DNA of 64,000 bases from Thermoanaerobaculia bacterium (lineage in GTDB: Bacteria; Acidobacteriota; Thermoanaerobaculia; Multivoradales; UBA5704). The DNA lies in assembly GCA_035490435.1 (NCBI GenBank), contig DATHEF010000004.1:216044-280043 (forward strand), in the 5' to 3' direction. The notes below the pieces were generated by a model. It ran no database searches. It was not told where the DNA came from and saw only the letters and a list, made by a program, of their open reading frames with translations. The position numbers and the translations under genes are program-made. Positions 5,440-23,115 of this stretch are shown piece by piece (within the stretch, counting starts at the first letter, position 1; each line of letters starts with the position of its first letter).

Positions 5440-5893
5440 TCCGGATCGCGCTTTCCGCCTTCCGTGTTTCCGCATGGGCCCACGGGCTCTGCGGATGCGC
5501 CTCACCGATCTCCGAGTCCGCTTACCCGATCGCCGTGTCTTCCCGCCCGATCTCCACGTGCGCCCACCGGAACTGCGGTCGCGCCCCCTGGATCTCTGTG
5601 TGCGCCCTCTGGTTCCGCGATTGCGCCGGCTGGTTCTCTGTGTGTGCCCCCTGGAACTGCGGTCGCGCGCAAGGGAAGGCCGTGCCGGCGTGACGACGGG
5701 CTGACTCCGCTTTCCAGAGGGCTGGTGCGTGGAAGCAGAGGGCGCCAACACGAGACCAGAGGGCGCGGTCTGCCCTCAGAAGCTATGGGACGCGGCTCCA
5801 GAGGGCGCAATCGCAGCTCCAGAGGGCACACACGGAAAAACCAGAGGGCACGGTCCACCGAGCAGAGGGCGCGACCGCATCAGCAGAGGGCGC
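5440..5893. repeat. complex intergenic repeat cluster: inverted arrays of short GCGCCCTCTGG / CCAGAGGGCGC motifs
   Basis: Left arm carries gcgccccctgg, gcgccctctgg and gtgccccctgg units. The right arm carries six cagagggcgc/cagagggcac units spaced 20-30 bp. The arms are imperfect reverse complements of each other over about 200 bp. Confidence 0.8.
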
Positions 5894-5897
5894 TACG

Positions 5898-6773
5898 CTA
5901 GCGTCCTTCGATCGGTACCGCGAACTGGTCGAGCTGAGTCAGATCGCGCCGGTAGGCGGTGACCGCCACGCGGTCCGGATAGACGTCGACGACGCAGAAG
6001 TGGTTCACCTTCTCGAAGACGTCGCCAGGAACCCCGAGCTCGGGGTGCTCGCCGTCGTAGAGCGGGGCGCCGCCGCCGCCGGTGACGACGTAGGTGATGC
6101 CGTCCCTCAGGGTGCGGTAGTAGATGTGGTCGTGCCCCTCGAAGACCAGGCGGACCCCGTATTTCCTGAACAGCGGATGGAGGATCGCCTGCAAGGCCAG
6201 GATTCCGCTCTCGTCGGCGTGGGGTCCGGTCGAGAAGATCGCCTTGTGGAAGAAGGGGACGATGAGCTTCCCCTCGGACCGCGCCCTGGCGAGGTCGGCT
6301 TCGAGCCAGCGCCCCTCCTCGCTCGCCGGGTCGAGCGGCTGCTGGGTGTCGACGGCGATGAAGTGGAGGTTCCCCTTCTCGAAGGAGTAGTAGAGCTTGT
6401 TGCCGGAGAGGAACGGCTGGGTCACCCGCTGCTCGTAGTAGCCGTGGGTGCCCATGTCGTGGTTGCCGCGGGCCGGGTAGTAGGGGATCTGCCGCCGCAT
6501 GTCGCCGGTGATCTCGTCGAAGATCCGCCATTCGTCCGCGGCGTCGCCATGGCGAACGAGGTCGCCGGTCTGCAGGACCAGCGCCGGCTGGAAGCTCATC
6601 ACTCCCTTGACGATCTCGCGGTGGATGTCGTGGTTGTCGCGGGTGTCGCCATACGCGGCGAAGCGGAGCAGGGCTCTCGCCGGCGCCGGCAAGGGGTTCT
6701 GAGCCTGGGGCGTCTGGGAGCAGGCGGAGACCAGCAGGGCGAGCAGGAAGGCGAAACAGGGGGTGGGTTTCAT
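5898..6773 (-). CDS. calcineurin-like metallophosphoesterase, secreted or lipoprotein
   Basis: MKPTPCFAFLLALLVSACSQ signal/lipobox, then GDTRDNH...GNHD...GHDH metallophosphatase motifs. Start trimmed from the 791-aa ORF-track call to the Met preceding the signal peptide. Confidence 0.8.
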   Translation of the reverse strand: MKPTPCFAFLLALLVSACSQTPQAQNPLPAPARALLRFAAYGDTRDNHDIHREIVKGVMSFQPALVLQTGDLVRHGDAADEWRIFDEITGDMRRQIPYYPARGNHDMGTHGYYEQRVTQPFLSGNKLYYSFEKGNLHFIAVDTQQPLDPASEEGRWLEADLARARSEGKLIVPFFHKAIFSTGPHADESGILALQAILHPLFRKYGVRLVFEGHDHIYYRTLRDGITYVVTGGGGAPLYDGEHPELGVPGDVFEKVNHFCVVDVYPDRVAVTAYRRDLTQLDQFAVPIEGR

Positions 6774-6845
6774 CGGAGTCTCCTTGGCGGGGTAGAATAG
6801 GGCAAAGCTTCGATCTGATCCACGCGCCCGAGGGAGGAGAATCCG

Positions 6846-8150
6846 ATGCGCCGCTCCGCCGCGTTCCGTTCCGTCGCCCTGGCGACTCTGCTGCTCTTCT
6901 CCGTCTCCTGCGTCTCGACGCGGCTGCCGCCGATCTCGAGCCAGGGCGGGGCTTTCGAGCCGCTGCACGACGAGCAGATCCTCTGGGACCAGTCCCGGGG
7001 GGAGGAGAGGAAGCTCCTCGAGGACATCCGGCTCTACAAGGATCCGGGCCTCGACGCCTATCTGGAGGAGGTGGTCGCCCGCCTCAACCCGCCCGGCATG
7101 GCCTCCAATGAGGCCGTGCGGTACCGGGTGCGAGTGATCGAGGACCCCACGCTCAACGCCTTCGCCTACCCGCACGGCTCGATCTATGTCCACACCGGGC
7201 TGCTCGCGCGTTTGGAGAGCGAGGACGAGCTGGCGACGGTGCTCGGCCATGAGATGACCCACGTCGAGAACCGCCACATGCTGCGCTATCAGCGGAGCGC
7301 CCACAACAAGGAGATCGGCCTCTCGATCGCCGCCGTCACCGCCTCGGTAATCCTCGCCGGTGTCGAGGGGGATGCCCTGAATGCCGGCGACTGGGGGAAA
7401 GCGGCGGCGATCGACCTCTTCGGCAATCTGCTCGTCGGGCTCGGGCTGGATCTCGCCTTCCAGGCGTCGGTCAACGGCTACGGCCGCGGTCTCGAGGAGG
7501 AGGCGGACCTGGGCGGCTTCACCAAGCTGGCCGCGGCGGGCTACGACCTCCAGGAGGCGCCGAAGGTCTACCAGGCGCTCCTCGACGACCAGGGGGAGCC
7601 CCACCGGGCCGAGGCGTTCTTCTTCGGCAGCCATCCGCGCCTGAGCGAGCGGATCGAGGTCACCCGGCGCTATCTGGGAGCGCACGCGGCGGTGGCGGGC
7701 GTGGTGATCGACCGCGCCGGCCGGCAGGAGGCCTTCGCCCGCCACCTCCGGCCGCTGGTGCGGGAGGACGCCCGGCTCAACATCGAGATGGGGCGGCTGA
7801 TGCTCGCCGAGGCCGAGCTCCGGAGGGTGCGGGAGTGGATGCCCGAAGACCCCGAGACCCACTTCCTCAAGGGGCGGCTGCGGCTCGCCCAGTCGGTCGC
7901 CGAGCAGAGCCCGGAGGCGCGGGCGCGGCTCCAGGGGGAGGCCGAGGACGCTTTCCGCAAGGCGATCGAGCTCGACGGCGACCGCCCGGCGCCGCACCGC
8001 GAGCTGGGGCTGCTGCTGCGCGAGCGCAAGGACTTCCGCGGCGCCTGCGTGCAGCTCCGGCGCTACGAGCAGCTCGATCCGCAGGCCGACGACGCCGGGC
8101 AGATCGAGGATTCGATCGCCGAGTTGGAGGGGTTCGGCGGCTGCGGGTAG
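6846..8150 (+). CDS. M48 family zinc metallopeptidase with C-terminal TPR-like region
   Basis: Signal peptide; HEMTH (HExxH) with downstream E; Peptidase_M48-type context (LGHEMTHVENRHM). Confidence 0.8.
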   Translation: MRRSAAFRSVALATLLLFSVSCVSTRLPPISSQGGAFEPLHDEQILWDQSRGEERKLLEDIRLYKDPGLDAYLEEVVARLNPPGMASNEAVRYRVRVIEDPTLNAFAYPHGSIYVHTGLLARLESEDELATVLGHEMTHVENRHMLRYQRSAHNKEIGLSIAAVTASVILAGVEGDALNAGDWGKAAAIDLFGNLLVGLGLDLAFQASVNGYGRGLEEEADLGGFTKLAAAGYDLQEAPKVYQALLDDQGEPHRAEAFFFGSHPRLSERIEVTRRYLGAHAAVAGVVIDRAGRQEAFARHLRPLVREDARLNIEMGRLMLAEAELRRVREWMPEDPETHFLKGRLRLAQSVAEQSPEARARLQGEAEDAFRKAIELDGDRPAPHRELGLLLRERKDFRGACVQLRRYEQLDPQADDAGQIEDSIAELEGFGGCG

Positions 8151-8196: not shown

Positions 8197-10263
8197 ATGC
8201 GCAAGCTGTTCATTTGTTTCGCGATGCTGACGGCGGCCCTCCCCGCGCTGGCGGCGGACCCGCATCCGTTCAACGTCCATGATCTGGTGACGATGCAGCG
8301 GATCTCGGACCCTCAGCCCTCGCCGCGGGGGGACCGGGTCGCCTTCGTCCTCCGCTCCACGGATCTCGACGCCAACCGGGGTCGCACCGATCTCTGGATC
8401 GTCAATGCCGACGGCGGCGGCCTCGCCCGGCTGACCACCGATCCGGCGTCGGACGACACCCCCCGCTGGGCGCCGGACGGCCAGAGCCTCTACTTCCTCT
8501 CCAGCCGCTCCAAGTCGAGCCAGGTCTGGAAGTTGCCGGTCGCTGGGGACACCGTGGGCGACCCCGTGCAGGTGACCCATCTCCCTCTCGACGTCGCGAA
8601 CCTCACCCTCTCGCCCGACGGCTCGCGGCTCGCCTTCAGTCTCGAGGTCTACGCCGACTGCCCGACGGTCGCCTGCACGAAAGAGCGGCTGGACCAGAAG
8701 GAGAAGGAGAAGTCCTCCGGCCAGCTCTTCCAGGGGGATGCCGGCTTCTTCCGCCACTGGGACGTCTGGTCCTCGGGGCTGCGCAACCATATTTTCACCC
8801 TGCCGGCCTCTGGCGAGGGCGATCCGGTCGACCTCTCGCGCGGCATGAACGCCGACGCCCCCTCGCGCCCCTTTGGCGGCTCCGAGGAGTTCACCTTCTC
8901 GCCCGACGGCCGCACGTTGGTCTTCACCGCCCGCCTCGGCGGCCGCGAGGAGCCGTGGTCGACCAACTTCGACCTCTACAGCGTGCCGGCGGACGGCTCG
9001 CAGGCGCCCCGGAACCTGACGCAGGCCAACCTCGCCTGGGACACCCAGCCGGTCTTCTCGCCGGACGGCAAGACCCTGGCCTACCTCGCAATGTCCCGCG
9101 CGGGCTTCGAGGCCGACCGCTTCCGCATCCGGCTGCGCGACCTCGCCACCGGCCGCGAGCGGGTGCTCGCGGAGGCCTGGGACCGCTCGCCGGCCGGGGT
9201 CTTCTTCTCGGCGGACGGCCGCACTCTCTATGCCTCGGCCGGTGACGTGGGGCAGACGCCGCTCTTCGCCATCGACGTCGCGACCGGCAAGGTGACCAAG
9301 CTGGTGTCCCAGGGGCACGTCCATGATCCGAAGCTCGCCGGCGACCGCATCGTCTACGGCCTCGATACCCTGATCTCGCCGGTGGAGCTGTACACGGTGG
9401 GGCGCGACGGCACGGGGGTGTCCCAGCTCACCCACGTCAACCAGGAGGCGCTCGCCGCCATCCGCATGGGGGAGCCGGAGCAGTTCTCCTTCAAGGGGGC
9501 CAACGGCGATACGGTCTGGGGGTGGGTGACCAAGCCGGTCGGCTTCCAGGCGGGCAGGAAGTACCCGCTGGCCTTCCTCATCCACGGCGGCCCCCAGGGA
9601 TCGTTCAGCAACGAGTTCCACTACCGCTGGAACCCGCAGCCCTACGCGGGGGCGGGGTACGCGGTGATCACCATCGACTTCCACGGCTCGACCGGCTACG
9701 GCCAGGCGTTCACCGACGCCATCACCCGGGACTGGGGGGGCAAGCCGCTGGTCGACCTTCAGAAGGGGCTCGCCGCCGCCCTCCAGCGCTACCCCTGGAT
9801 CGACGGCACGCGGGCGTGCGCTCTCGGCGCCTCCTACGGCGGCTTCATGATCAACTGGATCCAGGGCAACTGGCCCAACGCCTTCAAGTGCCTGGTCGAC
9901 CATGACGGCACCTTCGATCAGCGGATGATGTATTACGGCACCGAGGAGCTCTGGTTCCCGGAGTGGGAGATGGGCGGCACCTACTGGCAGCACCCGCAGC
10001 TCTACGAGAAGAACAACCCGGTGAATTTCGTCGACCGCTGGAAGACCCCGATGCTGGTCGTCCACAGCGCCCTCGACTACCGCATCCCGGTCACCCAGGG
10101 GATCGCCGCCTTCAACGTCCTCCAGCGCAAGGGGATCGCCAGCCAGTTCCTCTACTTTCCCGACGAGAACCACTGGATCCTCAAGCCGGCCAACAGCATC
10201 CTCTGGCACGACACCGTGCTGACCTGGCTCGACCGCTGGCTGGGGCCCGGGGGAAGCAAGTAA
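8197..10263 (+). CDS. S9 family serine peptidase (prolyl oligopeptidase / acylaminoacyl-peptidase-like) with N-terminal TolB-like beta-propeller
   Basis: Signal peptide MRKLFICFAMLTAALPALA; propeller repeats (SPDG...); GASYGGFM nucleophile elbow (GxSxGG); D and H of the catalytic triad lie in the C-terminal alpha/beta hydrolase fold. Confidence 0.85.
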   Translation: MRKLFICFAMLTAALPALAADPHPFNVHDLVTMQRISDPQPSPRGDRVAFVLRSTDLDANRGRTDLWIVNADGGGLARLTTDPASDDTPRWAPDGQSLYFLSSRSKSSQVWKLPVAGDTVGDPVQVTHLPLDVANLTLSPDGSRLAFSLEVYADCPTVACTKERLDQKEKEKSSGQLFQGDAGFFRHWDVWSSGLRNHIFTLPASGEGDPVDLSRGMNADAPSRPFGGSEEFTFSPDGRTLVFTARLGGREEPWSTNFDLYSVPADGSQAPRNLTQANLAWDTQPVFSPDGKTLAYLAMSRAGFEADRFRIRLRDLATGRERVLAEAWDRSPAGVFFSADGRTLYASAGDVGQTPLFAIDVATGKVTKLVSQGHVHDPKLAGDRIVYGLDTLISPVELYTVGRDGTGVSQLTHVNQEALAAIRMGEPEQFSFKGANGDTVWGWVTKPVGFQAGRKYPLAFLIHGGPQGSFSNEFHYRWNPQPYAGAGYAVITIDFHGSTGYGQAFTDAITRDWGGKPLVDLQKGLAAALQRYPWIDGTRACALGASYGGFMINWIQGNWPNAFKCLVDHDGTFDQRMMYYGTEELWFPEWEMGGTYWQHPQLYEKNNPVNFVDRWKTPMLVVHSALDYRIPVTQGIAAFNVLQRKGIASQFLYFPDENHWILKPANSILWHDTVLTWLDRWLGPGGSK

Positions 10264-10525: not shown

Positions 10526-11956
10526 ATGTTTCCGACGACCACCATGCCCATGCCCGGCGCCTTGCGACTGAGGGCCCTGCACCCCCTGATCGAGGGGGAC
10601 GGCTCCTGCAGCCTGATCTACGACCTGGAGCGCGCGGCGGTGGTGGAGGTGCCCGAGGACCTGCAGTTCCACGTCGCCCCGGCGCTGGAGACCGGGGATC
10701 TCGACGAGGCGCTGCTCGGCTGGCTCGTCAACGAGGACCTGCTGACCAGCGAGGGGGGCGCGGGCTGGAGCGTGACCGCCGGTGCCGTCCAGCTCCCCGA
10801 GGGGGGGTGGTGGAGCCTGGGGGCGATCTACCGGATCGACGACGAGCTCCACGTCCGCATCGACCAGGCGCGCGAGGACGCCGCGCTGGAGGTGGTGGGG
10901 TTCGTGTTCAAGCAGGGCTTCGGCGCCAGCCGGGTCAAGCTGCACCTGAACTGGGGGGGCGCCTTCCCGGGGACGGCGCTGCTCGAGCGCATCGTCGTCG
11001 AGTCCTCCCGCCTGGCCGCGCTGCTGGGGCAGGAGATCGCCTTCGAGCTGACGCTCGCCGCCCGCGAGGTGACCCCCGTCCGCGCGGCATTCCTCGCCGG
11101 CTACGGTTTCCAGGTGCGGCTGCTCTGCGGCAGCTACCCGGCTCCCTACGCCGGCTTCTACGCCGATCTCCGCGACCGGGATGGGGACAATAATGGCGGG
11201 ACGTGGGAGGCGGAGGCGCCGGTGCGCCTGCTGCACGAGGCCCTGAAGGGGCGGCTGACCGTCCACTGCGTGCTCGACCGCGGCCGTCTCCTCGACCTCT
11301 GGGAATGGGCCAAGCGGACCGGCCTCCGCCACCTGGACGCGACGGTGCTCGAGGACGCCGCGTTCGGCGACGGCGCGCCGCGCCCCGGCCGCCTGCGCGA
11401 GGTCCGCAACGACCTGCTGTCGGTCTGCGACGAGATGGCCGACGAGCTCGGCGGCCAGCGCCTGCCGGTCGAGTTCAAGCCGCTGACCCGGATCGTCGAC
11501 CGCCTGATGCGTAGCGAGCCGCTCGGCCAGGCCTACGGCGAGCGCGGCAGCTTCGCCAGCAGTTTCGCCGGGATGATGATGCCGATGGCCGACGCCTGCC
11601 CGCGCTCCTTCTTCGACAGCCTCGACCTGCGCTCGCTGCCGGACCTCCCGGACGGGCTGGGGGAGGAGCCGCGGGGGGATCTGGAGATGGAGACCTCCTG
11701 TCTCGGGTGCTGGGCCCGGCACGCGTGCGGTCACAGCACCTACGTGACCTCCCCCCAGGACGACGACGCGCGGGGAGCCGCGGAGGACCGCTGCCCGCTC
11801 TGGCGGACCGAGGTCGAGGTGGCGCTCCGCTTCTACCACCGCCTCGCCCACATGGACCCCATCCAGGTCCGCCAGTTCTTCGATCAATCCCTCCGCGAGC
11901 CGGCCCCGCCGCTCGGCCGCCGCGAGGACCTCGGACACCTGAGGATGCCGTTCTGA
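10526..11956 (+). CDS. hypothetical protein with C-terminal CxxCx5C...C cysteine cluster (SPASM/twitch-like), lacking a radical-SAM CxxxCxxC motif
   Basis: Strong RBS ggaggagga; C-terminal SCLGCWARHACGHSTY...EDRCPLW; no CxxxCxxC anywhere in the N-terminal half. Composition is protein-like, whereas the overlapping ORF-track calls are R/A/G-rich. Confidence 0.65.
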   Translation: MFPTTTMPMPGALRLRALHPLIEGDGSCSLIYDLERAAVVEVPEDLQFHVAPALETGDLDEALLGWLVNEDLLTSEGGAGWSVTAGAVQLPEGGWWSLGAIYRIDDELHVRIDQAREDAALEVVGFVFKQGFGASRVKLHLNWGGAFPGTALLERIVVESSRLAALLGQEIAFELTLAAREVTPVRAAFLAGYGFQVRLLCGSYPAPYAGFYADLRDRDGDNNGGTWEAEAPVRLLHEALKGRLTVHCVLDRGRLLDLWEWAKRTGLRHLDATVLEDAAFGDGAPRPGRLREVRNDLLSVCDEMADELGGQRLPVEFKPLTRIVDRLMRSEPLGQAYGERGSFASSFAGMMMPMADACPRSFFDSLDLRSLPDLPDGLGEEPRGDLEMETSCLGCWARHACGHSTYVTSPQDDDARGAAEDRCPLWRTEVEVALRFYHRLAHMDPIQVRQFFDQSLREPAPPLGRREDLGHLRMPF

Positions 11957-12054
11957 GCCCCGCTCCGGCATCTCTCGCCCCATCTCCCCTCGGGTAGAGG
12001 CGTCCCCCTCCGGGTCGCCTCTGCCCACCCTTTTCTGATTTACTCCGGTCCATC

Positions 12055-12654
12055 GTGCCGTCTAACGCCTGGCTCCGTTTCCGCTATTCGTTCTGGGCTC
12101 CCCACTACGACCGGGTGACCAAGTTCCCGGATGAGCGGCGGCGCTCGATCGAGCTGCTCGACCTGCGCCCGGGGGAGCGGCTGGTGGTGATCGGCTGCGG
12201 CACCGGCGCCGACCTCCCGTTGATCCCTTTGGGGATCGAGGTGCTGGCGGTGGATCTCACTCCGGCGATGATCCGCCAGGCGATGGCTCACGCGCGGCCC
12301 GGGATCGAGTTCCGGGTGATGGACGGCATGGCGCTCGACCTGCCGGACGGCTCGTTCGACGCGGCGATCCTCCACATGGTGCTGGAGGTGATCCCGGATC
12401 CGGCCCGCTGTCTCGCCGAGGCCGCGCGGGTGCTCCGCGTGGGGGGGCGGCTGGCCGTCTTCGACAAGTTCCTCCCCGAGGGGGAGCGCCCCGGCCCGCT
12501 CCGCCGCGCCGGGCTCGCCCTGCTCGACTTCGTCTTCACCAGCACCAACCGGCGGATGGGGGAGATCCTCGCCCGCTCCGGGGCCCCCTTCGCGGTCGAG
12601 CGCGACGACCCTTCCGTCGGCTCCTACCGCCACCTGATCCTGCGCCGCGTGTAG
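12055..12654 (+). CDS. class I SAM-dependent methyltransferase
   Basis: VVIGCGTGADL (motif I GxGxG); Methyltransf_11/25-like; GTG start inferred from the ORF track. Confidence 0.75.
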   Translation: MPSNAWLRFRYSFWAPHYDRVTKFPDERRRSIELLDLRPGERLVVIGCGTGADLPLIPLGIEVLAVDLTPAMIRQAMAHARPGIEFRVMDGMALDLPDGSFDAAILHMVLEVIPDPARCLAEAARVLRVGGRLAVFDKFLPEGERPGPLRRAGLALLDFVFTSTNRRMGEILARSGAPFAVERDDPSVGSYRHLILRRV

Positions 12655-12679
12655 GCGCTTCGCGTGTAGGATTACCCCC

Positions 12680-13066
12680 ATGGAAAACGACGCGCGGTTC
12701 CGGGGAGCGGGTGGGACGCCGGGGGGGCTGGGAGAGTTCCTGATCGGGCTCGCCATGGCCGCCGGCGGCGCCTACCTGCTGACCCAGCAGGTCACGGTGA
12801 CGAGCGGCTACTGGAACGTCTGGGGGCACAACGCCTTCGGCCTGACGCTGCTCCCCCTCCTCTTCGGCGTCGGCCTGCTGTTCTTCAACGGCCGCTCGGT
12901 GCTCGGCTGGCTGCTGCTGGTCGCCGGCGCGGCCATCCTCCTCGCCGGCATCCTGATGAACCTCCAGATCTACTTCCAGAGCACCAGCCTGTTCAACACC
13001 CTGATCATGCTGGTCCTGCTCTTCGGAGGCCTCGGGCTGATCGCCCGCTCGCTGCGATCGCATTGA
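12680..13066 (+). CDS. small integral membrane protein (128 aa, 3-4 TM)
   Basis: Hydrophobic segments LIGLAMAAGGAYLL, LTLLPLLFGVGLLFF, WLLLVAGAAILLAGILM, LIMLVLLFGGLGLI; 25 bp downstream of the methyltransferase gene. Confidence 0.55.
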   Translation: MENDARFRGAGGTPGGLGEFLIGLAMAAGGAYLLTQQVTVTSGYWNVWGHNAFGLTLLPLLFGVGLLFFNGRSVLGWLLLVAGAAILLAGILMNLQIYFQSTSLFNTLIMLVLLFGGLGLIARSLRSH

Positions 13067-13094
13067 TACCGGCCGGCTAGAGACTTGTGGCTTT

Positions 13095-14348
13095 TTAAAG
13101 CCGCCAGAGCAGCATGGCCCCGGCGGCCAGGATGAGGGAGGCCAGCGTCACCGGCAGACCCACCCGCAGGTGCTCGCGGAAGCCGAAGCGGACGCCGAGT
13201 CTCCCCGCCTGCTCGGCCACGATCAGGTTGGCGATGCTCCCCACCAGCACCGCGTTGCCGGCGAAGGTGCTGGCGAGCGCCATGGCGTAACCGGTCGCCG
13301 GCTGCCGCCCGACGAACGGCAGCAGCAGCATGACGGCCGGCACGTTGCCCACCCCCAGCGACAGCAGCGACACCGCCACCACCAGCGCCGCCGGATGCGC
13401 GAGGTCGGCGCCCGCCGCGGCGAGGGCGCCGCGGGCGGCCTCCGTCCAGCCCGAGACCTCGAAACCGCGCCCGACCACGAACAGGCCGACGAAGAGGGCG
13501 AGGAGATGCCAGTCCACCTGGGCCAGCATGTCGCGTGTCCGCATCCGCCGGCTGGTCAGCACGAAGCCGGCGATCCCGAGGGCGGTCAGCGGCGCCGGGA
13601 CAGGGGAGAGGAAGAGGGCGATGGCCGCCGCGGTCAGCAGGATCGCCTTGGCCGCCTGCCAGCGGTGGAGCGGGATGCGCTCTGTTTCGGCAGCGGCTTC
13701 GGCGGCGGCGAGGTCGCCGGGGACGGCTTTGACAATCCTGCCCTCCGGAGCCCGGAGCCGCGGCGCTACGATCAGGTAGAGCACGCCGAGCGAGAGGACG
13801 ACCGGCGCGGCGCAGGCCAGCATGAAGGGGAGGAAGGGGAGGTGGAGGCTCTGCGCGATCAGGATGTTCTGCGGGTTGCCGATCGGGGTCAGGGCGCTGC
13901 CGAGGTTGGCGGCGCAGGCGAGGGCCAGCAGGTAGGGTAGGGGAGGGCGGCGCGAGGCGAGCAGGGCGCCGGCGAGCAGCGGGGTCAGCGCGAAGCAGAT
14001 CACGTCGTTGGTGAGCACGGCCGCGAGCAGGGCGGTGACCACGATCGTCCCCAGCAGCAGCCGGCGCGGGTCCGCCACCTGGGCGAGCCGGCCGCCGATC
14101 GCTGAATAGAGCCCCGATTGCCGGTACTGGGCCGAGAGCAGCATCATGCCGAAGAGCACGGCGAGAGTCGGCGCGTCCACCGCCTGCTTGGCCTGCTCGA
14201 CGGTGATCGCGCCGGTGGCGAGGAAGGCCACGGCCCCCAGCAGGGCGAACCCCGTGCGGTCGAGCGCCAGCCCCGGCACGCGTCCGAGGGCGAGCCCGGC
14301 GTAGGTGAGGACGAACAGGACCAGTGGGAGCAGCGGGGGGTGGCCCAT
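13095..14348 (-). CDS. ArsB/NhaD-superfamily anion permease (CitMHS/SLC13-like)
   Basis: 417 aa, about 10-12 TM, duplicated halves, typical ...GNPQNILIAQS... motif. Confidence 0.75.
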   Translation of the reverse strand: MGHPPLLPLVLFVLTYAGLALGRVPGLALDRTGFALLGAVAFLATGAITVEQAKQAVDAPTLAVLFGMMLLSAQYRQSGLYSAIGGRLAQVADPRRLLLGTIVVTALLAAVLTNDVICFALTPLLAGALLASRRPPLPYLLALACAANLGSALTPIGNPQNILIAQSLHLPFLPFMLACAAPVVLSLGVLYLIVAPRLRAPEGRIVKAVPGDLAAAEAAAETERIPLHRWQAAKAILLTAAAIALFLSPVPAPLTALGIAGFVLTSRRMRTRDMLAQVDWHLLALFVGLFVVGRGFEVSGWTEAARGALAAAGADLAHPAALVVAVSLLSLGVGNVPAVMLLLPFVGRQPATGYAMALASTFAGNAVLVGSIANLIVAEQAGRLGVRFGFREHLRVGLPVTLASLILAAGAMLLWRL

Positions 14349-14437
14349 GCGGCCGGGATCATCTCATGAGATGATGAATCGTTGCCGGCGGGCGCCGGTT
14401 CGACGAAGCCGTCACAACAAGGATCTCGGGACGTACC

Positions 14438-15295
14438 ATGCTTCGCTTTGTTGTAGCTTTGCAGGCTGAGGCCCACCCGCTGGTGGGCCGGTTCGGAATG
14501 GCGGCCGTGAGCGAGGCGCCGTTCCCGGTCTATCGGAGCGAGGAGGCCTGGCTGATCGTCTCCGGTCACGGCAAGGCGGCGTCGGCCGCGGCCACCGCCT
14601 ATCTTCACCTGATGGCCGGCGGCGCCCTGGGCCGCGCCTGGCTCAACGTCGGCCTCGGCGGCCACAGCCAGCGGAAGCTCGGCGAGGGGGTGCTGGCGCA
14701 CAAGATCTCCGACGCGGCGAGCGGCGCCTCCTGGTACCCCCAACTGGTCATCGACAGCCCGGGCCCGACCGTCCCCGTCCTCTCCGTCGAGCGGGTGGAG
14801 GAGGAGTACGCGCCCCCCTGGGTCTACGAGTCCGAGGCGGCCGGCTTCTTCCCCACCGCCTGCCGGTTCTCGGTCGCCGAGCTGGTGCACGTCTACAAGG
14901 TGATCTCCGACAATCCGGACGCCACCCTCTCGCGGCGCATGTCGAGCCGGGCCGTCGAGGCGGCGATCGCCAGCAACCTGGACCGGATCGAGGCCTTCGC
15001 CCGCGGTCTCACGGATCTCGCGCGGGAATTGGAGGCGCTGGCCGCCGAGCCGCCGGGATACCCCGAGGCCCTGGAGCGCTGGTCCTTCACCGCCGCGCAG
15101 CAGCTCCGGCTGCGGCGGCTGCTGCGGCGGCTGGCGGCGCTCGATCCCGCGAGCTCGCGCGATCCGGCCTACCTGGAATCCCTGTTCGACGGCGCCCGCG
15201 CCGAGCGGGAGGTGCTGCGCTCGCTGGAAGCGCGGCTCGCCGTCATCCCCATCCGACTGCCCCCGCCAGGAGCCGCCGCCGATGATCTACGTTGA
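14438..15295 (+). CDS. purine nucleoside phosphorylase / MTA-SAH nucleosidase family protein (PNP_UDP_1-like) with C-terminal helical extension
   Basis: N-terminus MLRFVVALQAEAHPL...WLIVSGHGKAASAAATAYL matches the phosphorylase-I fold signature. The 3' end overlaps the next gene by 14 nt. Confidence 0.6.
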   Translation: MLRFVVALQAEAHPLVGRFGMAAVSEAPFPVYRSEEAWLIVSGHGKAASAAATAYLHLMAGGALGRAWLNVGLGGHSQRKLGEGVLAHKISDAASGASWYPQLVIDSPGPTVPVLSVERVEEEYAPPWVYESEAAGFFPTACRFSVAELVHVYKVISDNPDATLSRRMSSRAVEAAIASNLDRIEAFARGLTDLARELEALAAEPPGYPEALERWSFTAAQQLRLRRLLRRLAALDPASSRDPAYLESLFDGARAEREVLRSLEARLAVIPIRLPPPGAAADDLR

Positions 15296-16322
15296 GGAAG
15301 AGATCCTGGCGCATCCGCGCACGCTGCAGATCCAGAGCCGCTTCCCGGACGCCGAGGTCGTCCCCTGCTCGCGGTACAGCGAGATCTTCAACCGGCGGGC
15401 TCAGCACTTCCGGCTGCAGAAGCGCCGGCCGTCGCTGATCCTGGCGCGCAAGCACCGCAGCTTCGTGCAGGAGGCGCCGGCGGGGTTCGGCGTCAAGGGA
15501 GCGCGGAGCTTCACCTTCTCCCACATGCACAACTGCATCTACGACTGCCGGTACTGCTTCCTCCAGGGGATGTACCGGTCGGCCCACTACGTCGTCTTCA
15601 TCAACTACGAGGACTACCAGTGGGCGATCGAGGAGCGGCTGCGGTCGCTCCCCAACGGCTCTGCCTGGTTCTTCTCCGGTTACGACTGCGACAGCCTGGC
15701 GCTCGAGCCGGTGACCCGCTTCGCGGCGAGCTTCGTGCCCTTTTTCGCCCGCTTCCCGGCCGCGTTCCTCGAGCTGCGCACCAAGAGCACGCAGATCAAG
15801 TCGCTGCTCGACATGGAGGCGCCGCCGAACGTGATCGTGGCGTTCAGCTTCACGCCCGCGGAGGTGGCTGCGTCGGTGGAGCACCTGACCCCCTCGGTCG
15901 ACCGCCGTATCCGGGCAATGAAGAAGCTCCAGGAGCGCGGCTGGCGGCTGGGTCTCCGCTTCGACCCGCTGATCTACGACGAGGGCTTTCGCGAGCAGTA
16001 CCGGCGCCTGTACGAGCAGGTCTTTGGCGCCGTTCGCGTCGAGAGCCTCCACTCGGTGAGCCTCGGCCCGTTCCACCTGCCGGGGGGGCTGTTCAGGAAC
16101 ATGGCGCGGCTCTACCCGGAGAGCCCGCTGTTCGCCGCTCCCCTCGACGAGACGGGCGGCCAGGTGGGCTACCGGCGGGACCTGGAGGAGGAGATGATGG
16201 GGTTCTGCCGTGAGGAGCTGCTGCGCCACATTCCGCCGGAGATCTTCTGCCCGGGGTTGAGCGCCCTGCCGGCGGCCCATGCCGCGGAGGCGGCTTCGCC
16301 GCTCGGCGAAGCCGCGATGTAG
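15282..16322 (+). CDS. radical SAM protein, spore photoproduct lyase (SplB) family
   Basis: CIYDCRYCFLQG (CxxxCxxC) at the canonical SPL position; MIYVEEEILAHPRT N-terminus and overall SplB-like layout. Confidence 0.75.
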   Translation: MIYVEEEILAHPRTLQIQSRFPDAEVVPCSRYSEIFNRRAQHFRLQKRRPSLILARKHRSFVQEAPAGFGVKGARSFTFSHMHNCIYDCRYCFLQGMYRSAHYVVFINYEDYQWAIEERLRSLPNGSAWFFSGYDCDSLALEPVTRFAASFVPFFARFPAAFLELRTKSTQIKSLLDMEAPPNVIVAFSFTPAEVAASVEHLTPSVDRRIRAMKKLQERGWRLGLRFDPLIYDEGFREQYRRLYEQVFGAVRVESLHSVSLGPFHLPGGLFRNMARLYPESPLFAAPLDETGGQVGYRRDLEEEMMGFCREELLRHIPPEIFCPGLSALPAAHAAEAASPLGEAAM

Positions 16323-16329
16323 CCGCTTT

Positions 16330-18261
<1,932 letters not shown>

Positions 18262-18449
18262 CTAGGGGATCTCCTCAAGAATTTGCGTGCATCATCTCAC
18301 GAGTGGCGAAAAGCCGTGCCGGGTACCCGCCGGTGAGAAGAGGATGAGGAGGCATTCTCCACCCCACGCGGCGGGCCCCGGCACGGGTACGTCATGCGGG
18401 CGTGAAGGTTGCGCTCGCACACCCTCCGAACGCCCCAGGCGGCATATTG

Positions 18450-19727
18450 TTAACGAATGTCGTAGCCGGTTAGTTCTACGTACCCGTGCCCTTGCACGGG
18501 CTTGCCGCGATGGGTCCCCGTGACCGCGACCGCCCCTTCCCAGTAGCGGAAAGAGACGTCGAGCTCCTGATCGGCGAGCAGCGGGCGGACGTCGAGGTCC
18601 AGGTCTTCGCCCGGGACGCGCAAGTGCCACCGTGCGGGGTACCCGGCGCCGCTTCGCGGGCTGCGCCACTCGCCGGAGCCCGCGATCTGGAAATCGGCGA
18701 GCGCGAGCGGCCGGGAGCCGCCGTCCGGTCCGACCGCGGTGCCGCTGCTCGCCGGATCGGCGGTGCCGTCCCGCCGGCGCAGCCGGTAGAGCATGAGGTC
18801 CGAGCCGTCCGCGAGCTGAAGGGAGAACCAGTCCCAGCCCACCTGATCCTTGCCGAGCGAGCTGGTGCTCCATTCACGGTCCATCCAGGAGGCGCCGGTC
18901 ACCGCGAAGGGCTCCCCGCCGATGCGCACCGTGCCCGCGGTCGGCATGCGGGTGAGGGAGTAGTAATAGGAGGCGTTGCCCGGCTCGGCGCTCTTGCGGC
19001 TCAAGCCCCGCTCCCCCTGGAGCACGGGAGGCTTCCCCGCCCGCAGGAGAAGATCGATCGCCACCTCCCCCTCCGCCGCGCGCAGACGCACGGGGAAGAC
19101 CGGAGCCCCTTCGGCCGTCCAGTCCTTCACCCAGACCCGGAAGGGCGTGCCCTGCGCGCCCGCGAGCCCGACGGCGTCCCGGCTCCAGCGCTCGAAGGAG
19201 TGGAACTTCTTCCCGTCGACGTCGCTCACCGTGAAGTGGGCGAGCCAAGCCTGCCGGGTGGCCCAGGCCGACGCCCGCGCGGGCATCTCCGGCGCCAGGG
19301 CCGAGCGGAAGAAGGTGAGCTGGAAGCCGAAGCGCCGTCCCTCGGCCGTCGCGAGGTTCCCCGTGTAGTACCACCACTCGGTGCGGAACTCAGGATGCGG
19401 CCCATGATCGGACGGAAAGTGGAACTCCCGCGGCGCCAGTGCCCTGGCGTACCCCCGGTCGTCGGCGCTGCGCAGGGCGCCGGCGACGGAGAGGGAGGCG
19501 CGGGGTTGGGAGGGCGGTTCTTGACAGGCGAAGAGGCAGAGGCTGGCGAGGAGGAGGATTGCTGATCGGGTCCGGAGCCGCCAAAGCCCGGGATTGAAAT
19601 CCCGGGCTACCCACGGTCGTCCTCCGGACTTCAAATATTTTTTGGGGAAGTCCCGGAAGGGACAGTCGTCGGTAGCCCGGGATTTCAATCCCGGGCTTTG
19701 AGGTCGCAACCCACCCACAGTCCACAT
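18450..19727 (-). CDS. CrtC/AttH-like lipocalin-fold protein (hydroxyneurosporene synthase family), probable lipoprotein; start uncertain
   Basis: FHFPSDHGPHPEFRTEWWYYTGNL hallmark; LLLASLCLFAC lipobox. The ORF-track Met at 19727 lies inside a MITE-like inverted-repeat element, so the true start is probably an internal or non-ATG codon. Confidence 0.7.
   Translation of the reverse strand: MWTVGGLRPQSPGLKSRATDDCPFRDFPKKYLKSGGRPWVARDFNPGLWRLRTRSAILLLASLCLFACQEPPSQPRASLSVAGALRSADDRGYARALAPREFHFPSDHGPHPEFRTEWWYYTGNLATAEGRRFGFQLTFFRSALAPEMPARASAWATRQAWLAHFTVSDVDGKKFHSFERWSRDAVGLAGAQGTPFRVWVKDWTAEGAPVFPVRLRAAEGEVAIDLLLRAGKPPVLQGERGLSRKSAEPGNASYYYSLTRMPTAGTVRIGGEPFAVTGASWMDREWSTSSLGKDQVGWDWFSLQLADGSDLMLYRLRRRDGTADPASSGTAVGPDGGSRPLALADFQIAGSGEWRSPRSGAGYPARWHLRVPGEDLDLDVRPLLADQELDVSFRYWEGAVAVTGTHRGKPVQGHGYVELTGYDIR
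19585..19697. mobile_element. MITE-like nested inverted-repeat element
   Basis: Terminal copies agcccgggattgaaatcccgggct and agcccgggatttcaatcccgggct, each itself a hairpin; inner inverted repeat tcctccggacttc / gaagtcccggaagggac around an AT-rich centre. Confidence 0.6.
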
Positions 19728-19730
19728 CCG

Positions 19731-22334
19731 CTACTCCTCCCGCAACGCCAGCGCCGGCGACGTCCGCGCCATCCTGTATGCCGGGTAGAGCCCGGCGAGC
19801 AGGGCGGCGGCGAGGGCCAGGAGCAGCGCCTGGAGGAGGACTCCGGGAGCGAGCTCCATGCGGATCGTCCAGCCGAAGGAGCGGCGGTTGATGACGTAGA
19901 TCATCACCGCCGCCAGGGTCATGCCGACCGGCAGGGAGAGCAGGCCGGCCGCGAGGCCCATCAGGCCGGTCTGCGAGGTCACGAGCTGCCAGACCTGCCC
20001 GGGGGTCATGCCGTTCGCCCGCAGCACGCCGAGCTCGCGGGCGCGCTCGAGCTGGAGCGCCATCAGCGACGAGAGCACGCCGATGAAGGCCACCAGCCCC
20101 GCCAGCAGGCGCAGGACCGAGGTGATCAGGAAGGTGCGGTCGAAGATCTCCAGCGAGATCTTCTTCAGCGAGCGGTTCGACTGGACCATCAGCGCCCGCT
20201 CGGAGCCGATCGCCGTCCGCAGCCGCTCGGCGACCCGGTCGGGGTCGGCCCCGGGCGCCAGATCCAGCGCGAAGCCGGTGAGGAACGGGTCGTTCCAGTT
20301 GCGCCGGTAGGTCGCTCCGCTCATCAGGACCACCCCCTGGTCCGAGGCGTAGTCGTAATAGACGCCCATCACCCGGAAATCGCGGTCCCCGCGCGCGGTC
20401 CGCAGGCGGATCGACGCACCGGTCCCCAGGCCGGTGCGCGAGGAGAAGGGCTCGGAGACGAGCACCGCGTCCCCGGTCTGAAACGCCGGCCAGGCTTCGG
20501 CGGGGCGCCCCTCCTTGAGCTCGAAGGTGCGGGCGAGCTTGCGCTCGCCGGCACCGATGGCGACGATGCGGACCGGCCCGGAAGGGGACGCCAGCTCGAC
20601 GCGGCGCAGGGTGTGCCCTCCCGCGATGCCCGGCAGCGCCAGCGCCCTTTGCGCCACGGCCGGATCGAGGTCGGCGCCGCTGAACCCCCCCGCCCGGCTG
20701 GGCACCGAGGCGTAGACGTCGGACTGCAGCGTCATCTCGAGCCAGCGCACCACCGTCTGCCGGAAGCTGTCGACCATCACCCCGATGCCGACCGTCACCG
20801 AGACCGCGATCACCAGGGCGGCGATGGCGACCGCCGTGCGCGAGAGGGAGGCGACGACCCCGCCGGCCGCCATCCGCCCGAGGACGCCGAGAGTGGCGCC
20901 CAGGGGCCGGCGGAGGAGCCGCATCAGCAGGACGGTGGCGACGGGGGAGAGCAGGGCGCACCCCAGGATCACGGCGAACAGCCCGACGAAGCTCACCGCG
21001 AGGTTGCGCGGCGCCAGCAGCCCGGCGCCGGCGGCGAGCAGGCCGATCCCCCAGGCGGTGACGCGCGGCAGCGAGCCGCGCAGCCGCGCCTCCAGCGTCG
21101 AGCGGAGGAGCGCCGCCCGCGGCGGTGCCTGGGTGGCCTCGATCGCTGGCACGAGCGCCGCCAGGAGCGTGGCCCCGATGCCGAGGAGGGCGCCGACGGC
21201 GAGCGTCGCGGGCGGGATCGCCAGCTCGCGCACGGAGACCACGAAGTAGAGGTCGTTGATCGTCTGCGTCACCAGCCGCACCAGCCCGCGCCCGAGGAGA
21301 ACCCCGGCGCCGAGGCCGGCGGCGGTGCCGAGCACGGCCACCGCCAGAGCCTCGCCCAGAACCAGCGTGAAGATCTCGCGCCGGGAGACCCCCAGCGCCC
21401 GCAGGGTGCCGATCCACTGCCGGCGCTGCACCACGGAAAAAGTCATCGTGTTGTAGATCAGGAAGGCGCCGCAGACCAGCGCCAGCATCGAGAGAGCGGT
21501 CAAGTTCAGCCGGAAGGCGCGCGTCATCTCCTCGGTGGTGCGCGTGCGCCCGGCTGCGGGTAGGATCTGGACGCCGGGCGGCAGCACCGCCCGCGCCCGG
21601 TCGAGCTGACGCCGGCCCGCGGCGCCTTCCTCCACGATGAGATCGATGCGGTCGATCCGCCCTACGCGCCCGAGCGTCTCCTGGGCGGAGGCGATGTCCA
21701 TCACCAGCAGATCGGCGATCGCCCGGCGGGTGTTCGCGTCTTCCGGGGCCAGCGTGCCGGCGAGCGTCAGCCGCCGCTTGATCCCCTGGGCGCGGATGGT
21801 GAACGGGTCTCCCAGGCGGAGCCCCAACTCGCGCGCCGTGCCCGCCGCCAGCACGCCGGCCCCCGGACGGGTGAGCAGCGGGCCGAGGTCGATGGCGGTC
21901 CCGCCCTGCCGCGAGCCGCCGGTGGCGCCGCCGAGATAGGAGCGGAAAGGGCCTTCCGAGAAGGGATCGACGCCGAGCAGGTGGAGCGTCCGGGCGGGGC
22001 GCACCGGCGCATTTGGGCGTCCTGGAGAAATTGGAGAGCTGGGGGGGACGCCCACCCAGCCCTCGACCACCGGCGCCGCCGCGTCGAGGCCGGCCTCCAA
22101 CTCCAGGCGACGGAAGGCGGCGTCGGGGATCCCTCCGGGGCCGCCGATCACTTGATGCGTGGCCTTGCCGGTGACCGCCTCCGTCGACAGCGTGAAGGCG
22201 CGGCTGGCGCTGGCGTTGGCGAGGCCGATCGACACCACCACCGCCACCCCGAGGGCGACGCCGAGCACCGCGAGGCCGAACTGCCAGGGGTGGCGCAGGA
22301 GGTAGCGCAGGCTGGAGCGCCAGAGGAGGCTCAT
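19731..22334 (-). CDS. ABC transporter permease, MacB/FtsX family with two FtsX domains (YbbP-like)
   Basis: 867 aa, two 4-TM FtsX modules each preceded by a large periplasmic domain; 4-bp overlap with the ATPase gene. Confidence 0.8.
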
Positions 22335-23017
22335 TCCCTCCGCTCCACCAGCCGGCAGTCCTCGATGCGGAACACCCGGTCCGCGAGCCCCACCACCTCG
22401 GGGCTGTGGGTGACCATCACCATGGTCTTGCCGGCTTGCCGGGTGAGGCGGTCGAGGAGGTCGAGCACCTGGAGGCCGGTTTCGAGGTCGAGATTGCCGG
22501 TCGGCTCGTCGGCCAGCACGAGCAGGGGATCGTGGGCCAGCGCCCGCGCCACCGCCACCCGCTGCTGCTCGCCGCCCGACAGCCGGTCCGGATAGCTGGA
22601 CGCCCGGTCCGCGATTCCCACTTCTTCGAGCAGCGCGAGCGCCGCCCGCCGCTGCTCGGGGCCGATGCGCCCCTTGAGCTCCATCGGCAGGAGCAGGTTC
22701 TCCTCGACGGTGAGGGTGGGGATGAGGTTGAAGAACTGGAAGACGAAGCCGATCCTGTCGCGGCGGAAGAGCGTCCGCTCGCGCTCGGAGAGAGAGGAGA
22801 TGGCGACGCCGTCGATCACCACCTCGCCGGAGCTGGGCTGGTCGATCCCGGAGAGCAGGTTGAGCAGCGTCGACTTCCCCGTGCCGCTGCGCCCGATCAG
22901 GACCGCGAACTCACCGCGCCCGATCGTGAGGTTGGCGTCGCACAGCACCATCCGCCGCCGGCTCCCCTCCAGGTAGTCCTTGGTGAGGTTCCGCAGCTCG
23001 ATGAGGGGGGCGGGCAT
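22331..23017 (-). CDS. ABC transporter ATP-binding protein (MacB/LolD-type)
   Basis: Walker [10 protein letters not shown], signature [15 protein letters not shown], Walker [14 protein letters not shown]. Confidence 0.9.
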
Positions 23018-23115
23018 GGCCCGGGGATGGTATCAGGCGAAGCGGGGGACCGGCTGGAGACGCCGTTGCTGGCCTGACGATCACGCGGGCTCAGATCTTC
23101 GAATAACGGCTGTCT

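Follow-up and report, generated by a model that had tools for sequence, protein, structure and literature searches.

What does a nucleosidase-type protein do next to a radical SAM enzyme that resembles spore photoproduct lyase (SPL), in a bacterium that does not appear to form spores? The question is raised by two overlapping genes, here called A and B, in a 64,000-nt stretch (the window) of contig DATHEF010000004.1 from a Thermoanaerobaculia bacterium (Table 1). The first-pass annotation of this locus proposed that A removes inhibitory 5'-deoxyadenosine for an SplB-like lyase in a probably non-sporulating organism, and left open whether the lyase repairs DNA photoproducts. The overlap of 14 nt is confirmed here, and the fold assignments of both proteins, their functional coupling, and the non-sporulating host are supported. 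The reading that we favor, with a probability of about 40%, is that B adenosylates a non-DNA substrate and A removes the adenine, with an SDR and a GT2 finishing the product where present.

Layout of the locus

A Shine-Dalgarno-like motif for B lies within the 3' end of A, and the junction between the two genes also overlaps or abuts in most related loci. Translational coupling of the two enzymes is part of the favored reading given above and shares its probability. Scans for promoters and terminators found no signal above chance. Rfam searches returned no match, and no regulatory RNA, for positions 12000–19000 of the window at E ≤ 1, and no match for 12 related loci at gathering thresholds.

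Neither an SDR nor a GT2 gene accompanies the pair in the window itself. The neighbors are genes for a CitMHS/ArsB-like permease, an S9 peptidase, a methyltransferase, and a 476-aa protein, with synteny within Thermoanaerobaculia only. Hopanoid, futalosine, and nucleoside-salvage genes were not found in the rest of the window. A link to arsenosugars, prompted by weak ArsM/ArsB-like and TIGR04283 matches, was dropped because of this restricted synteny and because the rest of the window lacks informative pathway genes. Farther along, a low-GC patch at 36–41 kb of the window carries an IS transposase; an rRNA operon was ruled out for this patch, which has no Rfam or tRNA match.

Table 1. Features of the A–B locus, in window coordinates.
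Feature	Position	Strand	Basis
Gene A, MTAN-type N-ribosylhydrolase with C-terminal helical domain, 285 aa	14438..15295	+	
A, alpha/beta nucleosidase core, aa 1–160	14438..14917	+	motif alignment to MTAN chains
A, catalytic-type residue E11	14468–14470	+	
A, catalytic-type E131-S132-E133	14828–14836	+	
A, catalytic-type K154..S157-D158	14897–14911	+	
A, C-terminal helical domain, aa ~170–270, with W215-x-F217-T/S218 and L225 motif	14945..15247	+	
Helical-domain segment missing from the ~217-aa short A of close relatives	15055..15222	+	blastn
Shine-Dalgarno-like AGGAG for B, within the 3' end of A	15268..15272	+	direct sequence reading
A stop/B start overlap, 14 nt, ATGATCTACGTTGA	15282..15295	+	
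Gene B, radical SAM enzyme of SPL fold, distinct highly conserved subfamily, 346 aa	15282..16322	+	
B, radical SAM cluster motif C85-x3-C89-x2-C92, then invariant F93 (Tyr98 in SPL)	15534..15560	+	alignment to SPL chains
B, invariant Y134-D135-C136-D137; Y134 at the position of SPL Cys140	15681..15692	+	

Folds and conserved residues of the two proteins

Protein A has the PNP/UDP alpha/beta fold of MTA/SAH nucleosidases (MTANs) and their motifs, namely the N-terminal catalytic Glu, Glu-Met-Glu, and Ser-Asp, which align to MTAN chains as SGIGKVAAA, NTGSAGG, EMEA, and RAISD. The first-pass annotation had named missing catalytic residues as grounds for rejecting its assignment. Among 150 representatives with at most 50% pairwise identity, the catalytic-type residues are conserved at 96–100%: E11 (99%), D/E131 (100%), M132 (98%; Ser in the window protein), E133 (100%), K154 (100%), S157 (96%), and D158 (99%). 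The fold and these residues make it very likely that A works as an adenine-type nucleosidase.

By sequence score, A falls outside the known MTAN models. The window protein has no Pfam match at E < 0.01, only 11 of 34 family members have one at E < 0.1, and the two MTAN models are matched by only 8 and 4 of the 34 (TIGR01704 by 4, at E < 0.1). Among the curated models, that of futalosine hydrolase (TIGR03664; best E 3.6e-7) gives the highest score for every one of the 34 aligned members, at 18–30 bits (18.2 for the window protein), all below the cutoff of 124.7 bits. The top fold matches include the structures of Helicobacter futalosine hydrolase and Chlamydia CT263. Compared with MTA/SAH nucleosidase (MtnN/Pfs; PF01048; EC 3.2.2.9), whose core spans about 230 aa, A has a core of about 160 aa and a further helical domain of about 100 aa; moreover, MtnN/Pfs is a stand-alone housekeeping gene, whereas A stands in obligate linkage with a single radical SAM gene. 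A also has conserved residues of its own (W68, H76, W99/Y100, and R143). The long helical C-terminal extension noticed at first pass is borne out as aa ~170–270 of A; its predicted structure has helices over residues 170–269, and the domain is conserved from Gammaproteobacteria to Planctomycetota. In the short form of A, part of this domain is missing, as blastn alignments of the window with two related loci (L007 and L092) stop at 15054 and restart at 15223.

Protein B matches the Pfam SPL model PF20903 (E 2e-16; 60.3 bits against a gathering threshold of 27). Its AF2 model (pLDDT 83.4) has an N-terminal domain and a C-terminal beta-hairpin as in SPL, and aligns in Foldseek with the SPL structures 4fhc–4fhg at TM scores of 0.78–0.81 over 338 columns. 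Common to B and SPL (SplB; TIGR04070; EC 4.1.99.14; PDB 4FHC–4FHG) are the full-length fold, the CxxxCxxC motif, and the SAM-binding residues: C85, C89, C92, K168, and S189 are invariant in 30 of 30 B sequences, and K168, S189, and Y91 align with Lys174, Ser195, and Tyr96 of SPL. However, B is only 17% identical to SPL, and its lesion-binding, hydrogen-donor, relay, and hairpin-tip residues are replaced. Cys140 of SPL is the H-atom donor and Tyr98 the relay, and Tyr98 was also proposed as a possible participant in SAM regeneration (PMC3467042). At these two positions, B has Y134 and F93 in all 30 sequences, with the invariant Cys136 two residues after Y134. For lesion contacts, the comparison covers R193, E268, and the hairpin tip, as SPL Tyr339 and Lys309 are not alignable by sequence: R193 is replaced by A187 (30/30), E268 lies in an alignment gap, and the tip reads E-E-x-G-G, acidic and Gly-rich, in place of Arg304/Tyr305. 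The net charge of B spans −11 to +9 across the family, and there is thus no conserved basic surface. The substrate-binding residues and Cys/Tyr relay that the first-pass annotation had suggested checking are therefore not those of SPL. Likewise, B reaches 78 bits on the SPL equivalog TIGR04070 (cutoff 400 bits) and 67.1 bits on TIGR03886, the model of a non-sporulating SPL paralog family (cutoff 437.55 bits). In the Fusobacterium branch of B, the third Cys is followed by Tyr instead of Phe and Cys136 is absent, so arguments from F93 and Cys136 do not apply to the whole superfamily.

Distribution of the pair and its partners

The A–B pairing, the loss of which would likewise have spoken against the first-pass proposal, is strongly conserved. 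B lies directly 3' of A in 63 of 64 metagenome loci, down to 33% A identity, and A lies directly 5' of B in 41 of 80 genomes. Moreover, members of the F. nucleatum group have a natural 623-aa A::B fusion (hhalign probability 98.8%, E 6e-17; BLASTP E 4e-20 and 8e-63), with the helical domain of A between both catalytic domains. Together, the adjacency in 63/64 loci and the fusion genetically link a dedicated PNP/MTAN-fold enzyme to one radical SAM enzyme. F. nucleatum carries an SDR in addition to the fusion, and two genes further downstream in Fusobacterium is a gene of the UDG superfamily. An apparent 442-aa A–B fusion in Thermoanaerobaculia (P0084) was rejected as a frameshift artefact because its residues 195–280 are an out-of-frame, low-complexity translation. 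In Methylococcales, 37 loci have B and an SDR without A within 5 kb; Methylomonas and Methylobacter have this B–SDR form. Unlike SPL, B occurs in non-sporulating hosts and is always accompanied by the nucleosidase and/or the SDR.

An SDR gene directly follows B in 65 of 113 loci. A soluble GT2 precedes A in 38 of 77 and is found only in loci with A. These partners form orthologous groups across phyla (49–69% identity for the SDR and 48–63% for the GT2), spanning Acidobacteriota, Planctomycetota, Marinacidobacterales, and several gammaproteobacterial orders. All four proteins are soluble. The strict pairing and the fusion, together with the orthology of both partners, delimit a discrete, testable module. 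No transporter or kinase conserved with it was found in the neighborhoods, and PADLOC gave no match for A, B, SDR, or GT2 and no defense system.

Both families are large and have no assigned function. Clustered at 50% identity, the A family splits into no fewer than 1,451 groups, and it lacks a Pfam model; B is present in at least 593 species-level genomes, with a mean column identity of 64% and many invariant polar residues. A literature search found no functional study of the A/B family. Source databases name B as "DNA photolyase" or "spore photoproduct lyase"; these names, and "adenosylhomocysteine nucleosidase", appear to be misnomers. The annotation of thousands of these genes as DNA-repair enzymes is probably wrong.

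A candidate adenosylation pathway and its alternatives

A and B may be the central part of a soluble module of two to four genes, GT2–A–B–SDR, in which they probably associate physically. B would bind a [4Fe-4S] cluster and SAM in the manner of SPL, but with a pocket remodeled to take a substrate other than DNA, probably a small polar molecule. Most likely, the 5'-deoxyadenosyl radical would be added to an unsaturated substrate atom to give a 5'-C-adenosylated product, SAM being consumed stoichiometrically and the product radical being quenched at the invariant Tyr134/Cys136 site. A would then hydrolyze the N-glycosidic bond, so that adenine is set free and a 5-substituted 5-deoxyribose remains. 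In loci that have them, the SDR may reduce the freed anomeric carbonyl to a polyol and the GT2 may glycosylate the product. The adenosylation chemistry, the step order, and the nature of the substrate are what we infer, from computational evidence throughout, on the basis of the observed gene structure, folds, conserved catalytic residues, lost SPL lesion-binding residues, conserved pairing, partner orthology, and natural fusion.

By analogy, these steps would mirror the logic of MqnE to MqnB in menaquinone biosynthesis and, for bacteriohopanepolyol, that of HpnH and HpnG followed by reduction and HpnI. MqnB shares the MTAN fold of A and strips the purine from the product of radical-SAM adenosylation by MqnE. 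However, the partner of A is SPL-fold rather than MqnE-type (TM 0.40 to MqnE), no mqn genes occur in the window or related loci, and neither the score cutoff nor an mqnA/C/D/E context makes A a member of MqnB. In the hopanoid side-chain pathway, an adenosylating radical SAM enzyme (HpnH), a PNP-fold enzyme that removes adenine (HpnG), a reductive step on the ribosyl aldehyde, and a glycosyltransferase of the GT2 type (HpnI) act together (PMC13459092), the same set of enzyme types as proposed for GT2–A–B–SDR. In contrast to that pathway, the four module proteins are soluble and the conserved residues of B are polar. The HpnG and HpnH models have no sequence match in A or B, and no squalene-hopene cyclase or other hpn gene was found near the module. 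To our knowledge, the module-bearing Omnitrophica and Fusobacterium are not lineages known for hopanoids.

Several lines of evidence argue for adenosylation: the obligate A–B linkage, with overlapping junctions, internal Shine-Dalgarno motif, and fusion; the MTAN fold and conserved catalytic residues of A; the preference of A for TIGR03664, since futalosine hydrolase acts on a radical-SAM adenosylation product; and the match of SDR and GT2 to the expected downstream steps. The replacement of SPL Tyr98 by F93 fits the use of SAM as a substrate. The characterized PNP/MTAN-fold enzymes dedicated to one radical SAM enzyme that we know of (MqnB and HpnG) all belong to adenosylation pathways. On the other side, adenosylation is rare among radical SAM families, and the only characterized SPL-fold enzyme known to us abstracts hydrogen and does not add an adenosyl radical. 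The sub-cutoff TIGR03664 scores and the absence of SDR and GT2 from the window also count against this reading, and the Methylococcales loci without A would need another nucleosidase.

Alternatively, B may perform hydrogen abstraction and release 5'-deoxyadenosine, which a docked or fused A would hydrolyze on the spot. This clean-up role, as proposed at first pass, seems unlikely, about half as probable to us as adenosylation. The MTAN fold and catalytic residues of A, the tight coupling, and the fusion suit it, and the loss of SPL Tyr98 suggests that SAM is consumed and 5'-deoxyadenosine released. Moreover, A looks accessory, with Methylococcales lacking it as if a housekeeping nucleosidase could substitute. 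However, genomes typically hold dozens of hydrogen-abstracting radical SAM enzymes, all producing 5'-deoxyadenosine, yet A adjoins B in nearly every metagenome locus, and no nucleosidase that serves just one such enzyme is known to us. Should A be a built-in scavenger, we would know of no earlier example in which relief from product inhibition is wired into a single radical SAM enzyme. The divergence of A from the Pfam MTAN models, its own conserved residues, and its extra domain suggest a specific substrate larger than 5'-deoxyadenosine. Clean-up also leaves the orthologous SDR and GT2 partners and the TIGR03664 preference unexplained, and gives no role to the GT2, which is tied to A.

Somewhat more doubtful still is the salvage or catabolism of a (modified) adenosine-type nucleoside, in which A would first release the base or sugar, B would cleave or rearrange it by radical chemistry, and the SDR would reduce the resulting carbonyl. 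Radical-SAM and reductase pairs are known in deoxygenation (AprD4/AprD3). The precedent is queuosine salvage by QueK and QueL, in which, according to PMC12632869 and PMC11130926, a nucleoside hydrolase acts first and a radical-SAM lyase follows on a modified purine nucleoside, enzyme types as in A–B; PMC11130926 also describes the queuosine hydrolases QueK and Qng1 as two mutually unrelated protein families. The gene order, with A before B, agrees with this precedent, and the invariant polar residues of B would suit a nucleobase or sugar. Against salvage, QueK comes from a different hydrolase family than A and is not known as an MTAN-type enzyme, the module has no conserved transporter or kinase alongside it, no queuosine transporter or tgt context is present, the Rfam searches revealed no riboswitch before the cassette, and a biosynthetic GT2 fits poorly with catabolism.

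Finally, it is very improbable that B is a DNA or RNA lyase akin to SPL that acts, with A as an accessory factor, on a thymine-dimer-like lesion or another kind of crosslink: although the full SPL architecture, the database names, a column identity that would suit a universal macromolecular substrate, and the UDG-superfamily gene near the Fusobacterium fusion favor such repair, the invariant residue replacements, the altered hairpin tip, the lack of a conserved basic surface, and the low equivalog scores speak against it, SDR and GT2 have no part in direct-reversal repair, no PADLOC or SOS-type context was found, and anaerobes of the gut and mouth, which see no UV, carry the module too.

If B does adenosylate, the SPL fold would gain in catalytic range and a new, widely distributed metabolite would be revealed. 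A bolder proposal, to which we give slightly less credence than to the adenosylation reading, is that the SPL fold was switched from hydrogen abstraction on DNA to 5'-deoxyadenosyl transfer onto a small molecule, forming, with the dedicated nucleosidase, the SDR, and the glycosyltransferase, a further radical-adenosylation pathway beyond those of futalosine and hopanoids, with a (glycosylated) polyol-tailed metabolite or cofactor as its product. This product would be widespread among Acidobacteriota of soils, Gammaproteobacteria of marine and fresh waters, methanotrophs, Planctomycetota, and the Fusobacterium nucleatum group associated with humans. Genetically tractable hosts that carry the module include Fusobacterium nucleatum, Methylomonas, and Methylobacter.

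Gene organization in the window

Gene A (MTAN-type fold) and gene B (SPL-fold radical SAM protein) lie exactly where the first-pass annotation had placed them, and the end of A and the start of B have 14 nt in common, ATGATCTACGTTGA. Direct reading of the sequence also reveals AGGAG within the 3' end of A, 9 nt 5' of the ATG of B. Third-position GC is 0.89 in A and 0.90 in B (window GC 69%), such that both resemble real genes. Because both flanking genes are on the opposite strand, A and B constitute a self-contained two-gene operon. The closest homologs, judged by their source names, assign the window to Thermoanaerobaculia (phylum Acidobacteriota).

Coordinates of the A-B operon and of other features in the window
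Feature	Position	Strand	Remarks
Large ORF	8197-10263	+	upstream of A-B
476-aa protein	10526-11956	+	
Methyltransferase	12055-12654		
CitMHS/ArsB-superfamily permease	13095-14348	opposite to A-B	Pfam
A	14438-15295	+	ORF, 285 aa
Codon of A residue 132	14831-14833	+	Ser
Segment deleted in short A	15055-15222	+	about 170-195 nt
B	15282-16322	+	ORF, 346 aa
Codon of B residue 265	16074-16076	+	His
S9 peptidase (beta-propeller/S9 prolyl-oligopeptidase family)	16330-18261	-	Pfam; first ORF downstream of B
Operon-like run of three ORFs	18450-23032	-	
CrtC-type lipocalin protein	18450-19727	-	first ORF of the run
Putative membrane permease, 867 aa	19731-22334	-	suggested by its sequence
ABC ATPase	22331-23032	-	last ORF of the run
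Low-GC patch	36000-41200		GC 0.61-0.63
DDE transposase with DUF772 domain	37715-39031	-	in low-GC patch
TPR protein	39687-41117		in low-GC patch

Two large ORFs flank the operon, each less than 10 kb away, and the upstream one resembles the S9 peptidase ORF by eye only. The 476-aa protein has no Pfam match and lacks a CxxxCxxC motif; its Cys-rich C-terminal stretch is weakly similar to the SPASM region of QhpD (TIGR03906, E 7e-3), and its gene is syntenic with the neighboring methyltransferase gene across many Thermoanaerobaculia loci. The low-GC patch, in which no rRNA or tRNA was found, is probably an insertion sequence.

Folds and conserved residues of A and B

A Pfam scan of the window's A returned no match, and among NCBIfam models futalosine hydrolase matched marginally (E 1.6e-3). 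The fold was settled by structure prediction as the MTAN/futalosine hydrolase type: the AlphaFold2 model (pLDDT 90.9) has an alpha/beta core (residues 1-160) followed by a helical domain (about 170-270), and its top 50 Foldseek matches in the PDB are all MTA/SAH nucleosidases or futalosine hydrolases. In profile alignments, the SGIGKVAAA, NTGSAGG, EMEA, and RAISD motifs of A line up with MTAN chains. An exhaustive profile search recovered 1,451 family representatives at E<=1e-30 and 2,932 at E<=1e-10 (median length 274 aa). Among 150 representatives with at most 50% pairwise identity, the catalytic residues expected of the nucleosidase fold noticed in the first-pass annotation are kept at 96-100%: E11 (99%), D/E131 (100%), M132 (98%), E133 (100%), K154 (100%), S157 (96%), and D158 (99%). 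This near-invariance of catalytic-type residues suggests that A is very probably an active adenine-type N-ribosylhydrolase. In the window's lineage, A has Ser instead of Met in the E-M-E motif.

Compared with housekeeping MTAN, from which it is far diverged, A has a shorter core, an added helical domain, and conserved residues of its own (W68, H76, W99/Y100, and R143). The futalosine hydrolase model matched all 34 aligned members (best E 3.6e-7), whereas two MTAN models matched just eight and four and Pfam PNP_UDP_1 matched 11, all scores being below the curated cutoffs. The long helical C-terminal extension, already recognized in the first-pass annotation, is the norm in the family. Nevertheless, an internal deletion removes most of this domain in a Thermoanaerobaculia subclade, where a "short" A of about 217 aa is common (loci L007, L092, L093, and L101-L107). 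In one of these loci, L007, the adjacent B is still 95% identical to the window's B, and the deleted part is therefore dispensable in some lineages.

For B, the score against Pfam SPL was 60 bits (GA 27), whereas the two SPL-family equivalogs of NCBIfam gave only 78/400 and 67/437 bits. The predicted structure of B (pLDDT 83.4) can be superposed on Geobacillus SPL across 338 columns (TM 0.78-0.81, 17% identity); the second-best fold is PFL activase (TM 0.45). The family is exceptionally conserved, with a mean column identity of 64% across phyla. Functional residues from the SPL structure paper (PMC3467042) were transferred to B by HMMER alignments. The cluster cysteines (C85/C89/C92), Tyr96 (Y91), and the SAM-binding Lys174 (K168) and Ser195 (S189) are shared. 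In contrast, the substrate-binding and relay residues, a check of which had been proposed, are replaced invariantly: Tyr98 by F93, the H-donor Cys140 by Y134 (C136, two positions on, is invariant as well), and the lesion contact Arg193 by A187. Glu268 aligns to a gap, Arg273 is matched by Arg in 27 of 30 B sequences and by His in the window's lineage, and the Arg-Tyr hairpin tip of SPL is acidic and Gly-rich in B. The net charge of the family ranges from -11 to +9. B is an enzyme of the SPL fold whose SAM site is conserved and whose substrate site is rebuilt, and it does not resemble a DNA lyase of the base-flipping kind.

Distribution of the gene pair and its natural fusion

Strong conservation of the pairing is evident from two scans. 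Among species-representative genomes, at least 593 have B; of the 80 loci kept, 41 have A directly upstream on the same strand; almost all loci with B but without A are from one order, Methylococcales. Among 64 metagenome loci found with A and having enough downstream sequence, 63 have B directly downstream, down to 33% identity of A, mostly with junctions overlapping or at most about 20 nt apart. Thus, A essentially never occurs without B. The sole exception (L113) has an A homolog with 46% identity and no B downstream. A 442-aa Thermoanaerobaculia protein (P0084) that looks like an A-B fusion is a frameshift artefact: between residues 195 and 280 the translation is out of frame and rich in Pro/Ser/Gly.

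Two further partner genes, SDR and GT2, join the pair elsewhere. Where the flanks were long enough on either side (113 loci), the gene arrangements are B-SDR (35), A-B (26), GT2-A-B (21), GT2-A-B-SDR (17), A-B-SDR (13), and B alone (1). The SDRs share 49-69% and the GT2s 48-63% mutual identity, and these groups span Acidobacteriota, Planctomycetota, Marinacidobacterales, and several gammaproteobacterial orders. L086, with GT2-A-B-SDR, is a typical full operon whose junctions overlap or abut, and in L003 and L087 the cassette GT2 ortholog is non-adjacent, a few kb off. No hydrophobic segment was found in GT2, and its sub-threshold NCBIfam matches include small-molecule glycosyltransferases (MftF and the arsenosugar-associated TIGR04283) and polysaccharide enzymes. 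The window has the minimal A-B form, with no SDR or GT2 ortholog found within its 64 kb.

A tblastn search of annotated collections with B identified a Fusobacterium vincentii homolog (32% identical) that makes up the C-terminal half of an ORF encoding 623 aa; an SDR gene directly follows. Family A is recognizable in the first 300 residues of this protein, both by hhalign (probability 98.8%, E 6e-17) and in a direct BLASTP comparison with the window's A (E 4e-20, 30% identity over 172 aa). These residues keep ALYIEA, DMEA, and KIVSD motifs, and the helical domain is located between the two catalytic domains. Databases give the protein no name beyond "spore photoproduct lyase (family protein)", and it is conserved across F. 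nucleatum, polymorphum, animalis, vincentii, and watanabei. This B branch is diverged: the third Cys is followed by Tyr instead of Phe, and Thr replaces Cys136, while Tyr134 and Ala187 are kept. As a separate line of evidence, the fusion argues strongly for joint action of A and B, as the first-pass annotation had proposed, probably in physical contact. Two UNVERIFIED "Bacteriophage sp." scaffolds from human faeces, which may be bacterial contigs rather than phage, also carry the cassette: L171 (MT835770.1) has A-B-SDR, and L170 (MT835514.1) lacks A and has an SDR located about 450 nt 5' of B.

Possible roles of the module

Our leading interpretation, with a probability of about 0.40, is that B adenosylates a substrate and A removes adenine from the product. 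B would transfer the 5'-deoxyadenosyl radical to its substrate, A would then release adenine, and SDR and GT2 would account for reduction of the freed ribosyl aldehyde and for glycosylation, respectively. This order copies MqnE/MqnB and the HpnH/HpnG/reduction/HpnI scheme (PMC13459092). Only this reading has a role for all four genes; it also fits futalosine hydrolase as the consistent nearest family of A and accounts for A being tied to B alone. Beyond folds, residues, and genomic linkage, the mechanistic steps are those that we infer.

The first-pass annotation had instead viewed A as a dedicated enzyme clearing the by-product 5'-dAdo of B. Although compatible with the fold, coupling, and fusion, such a role explains neither GT2 nor the divergence of A, and the lack of any precedent known to us also counts against it; it is rather unlikely. 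Neither of the two results that would have refuted the first-pass view was obtained, the pair being conserved and A retaining its catalytic residues. Slightly less likely, A may act before B by analogy with QueK/QueL salvage, for which neither transporter nor regulatory context offers support. DNA or RNA repair by B is highly improbable, and part of the probability is assigned to none of these readings. The hosts of the fusion and the faecal loci are anaerobes that do not sporulate and live in the dark, a further point against repair of UV photoproducts.

The folds and the logic of the adenosylation proposal are already known, and the module is not categorically new; it is uncharacterised and very widespread, and the labelling of B as a DNA-repair enzyme is probably wrong in thousands of genomes. 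With a fusion available in nature and the module present in tractable bacteria, the competing mechanisms can be put to a direct test.

In F. vincentii NZ_CP084075.1 (L169; a 2.1-Mb PLSDB "plasmid", evidently a chromosome), genes for an MBL-fold hydrolase, a UDG-superfamily protein, 5-formyl-THF cyclo-ligase, and an SIS-CBS protein are downstream of the fusion and SDR. In L003 (OZ375331.1, 12-Mb chromosome, 1-7000), SAM synthetase, MaoC dehydratase, and the cassette GT2 precede A-B on the same strand, as do NAD synthase and nicotinamidase (PncA equivalog, 268 bits), a neighborhood that may point to some connection with SAM or nucleotide metabolism.
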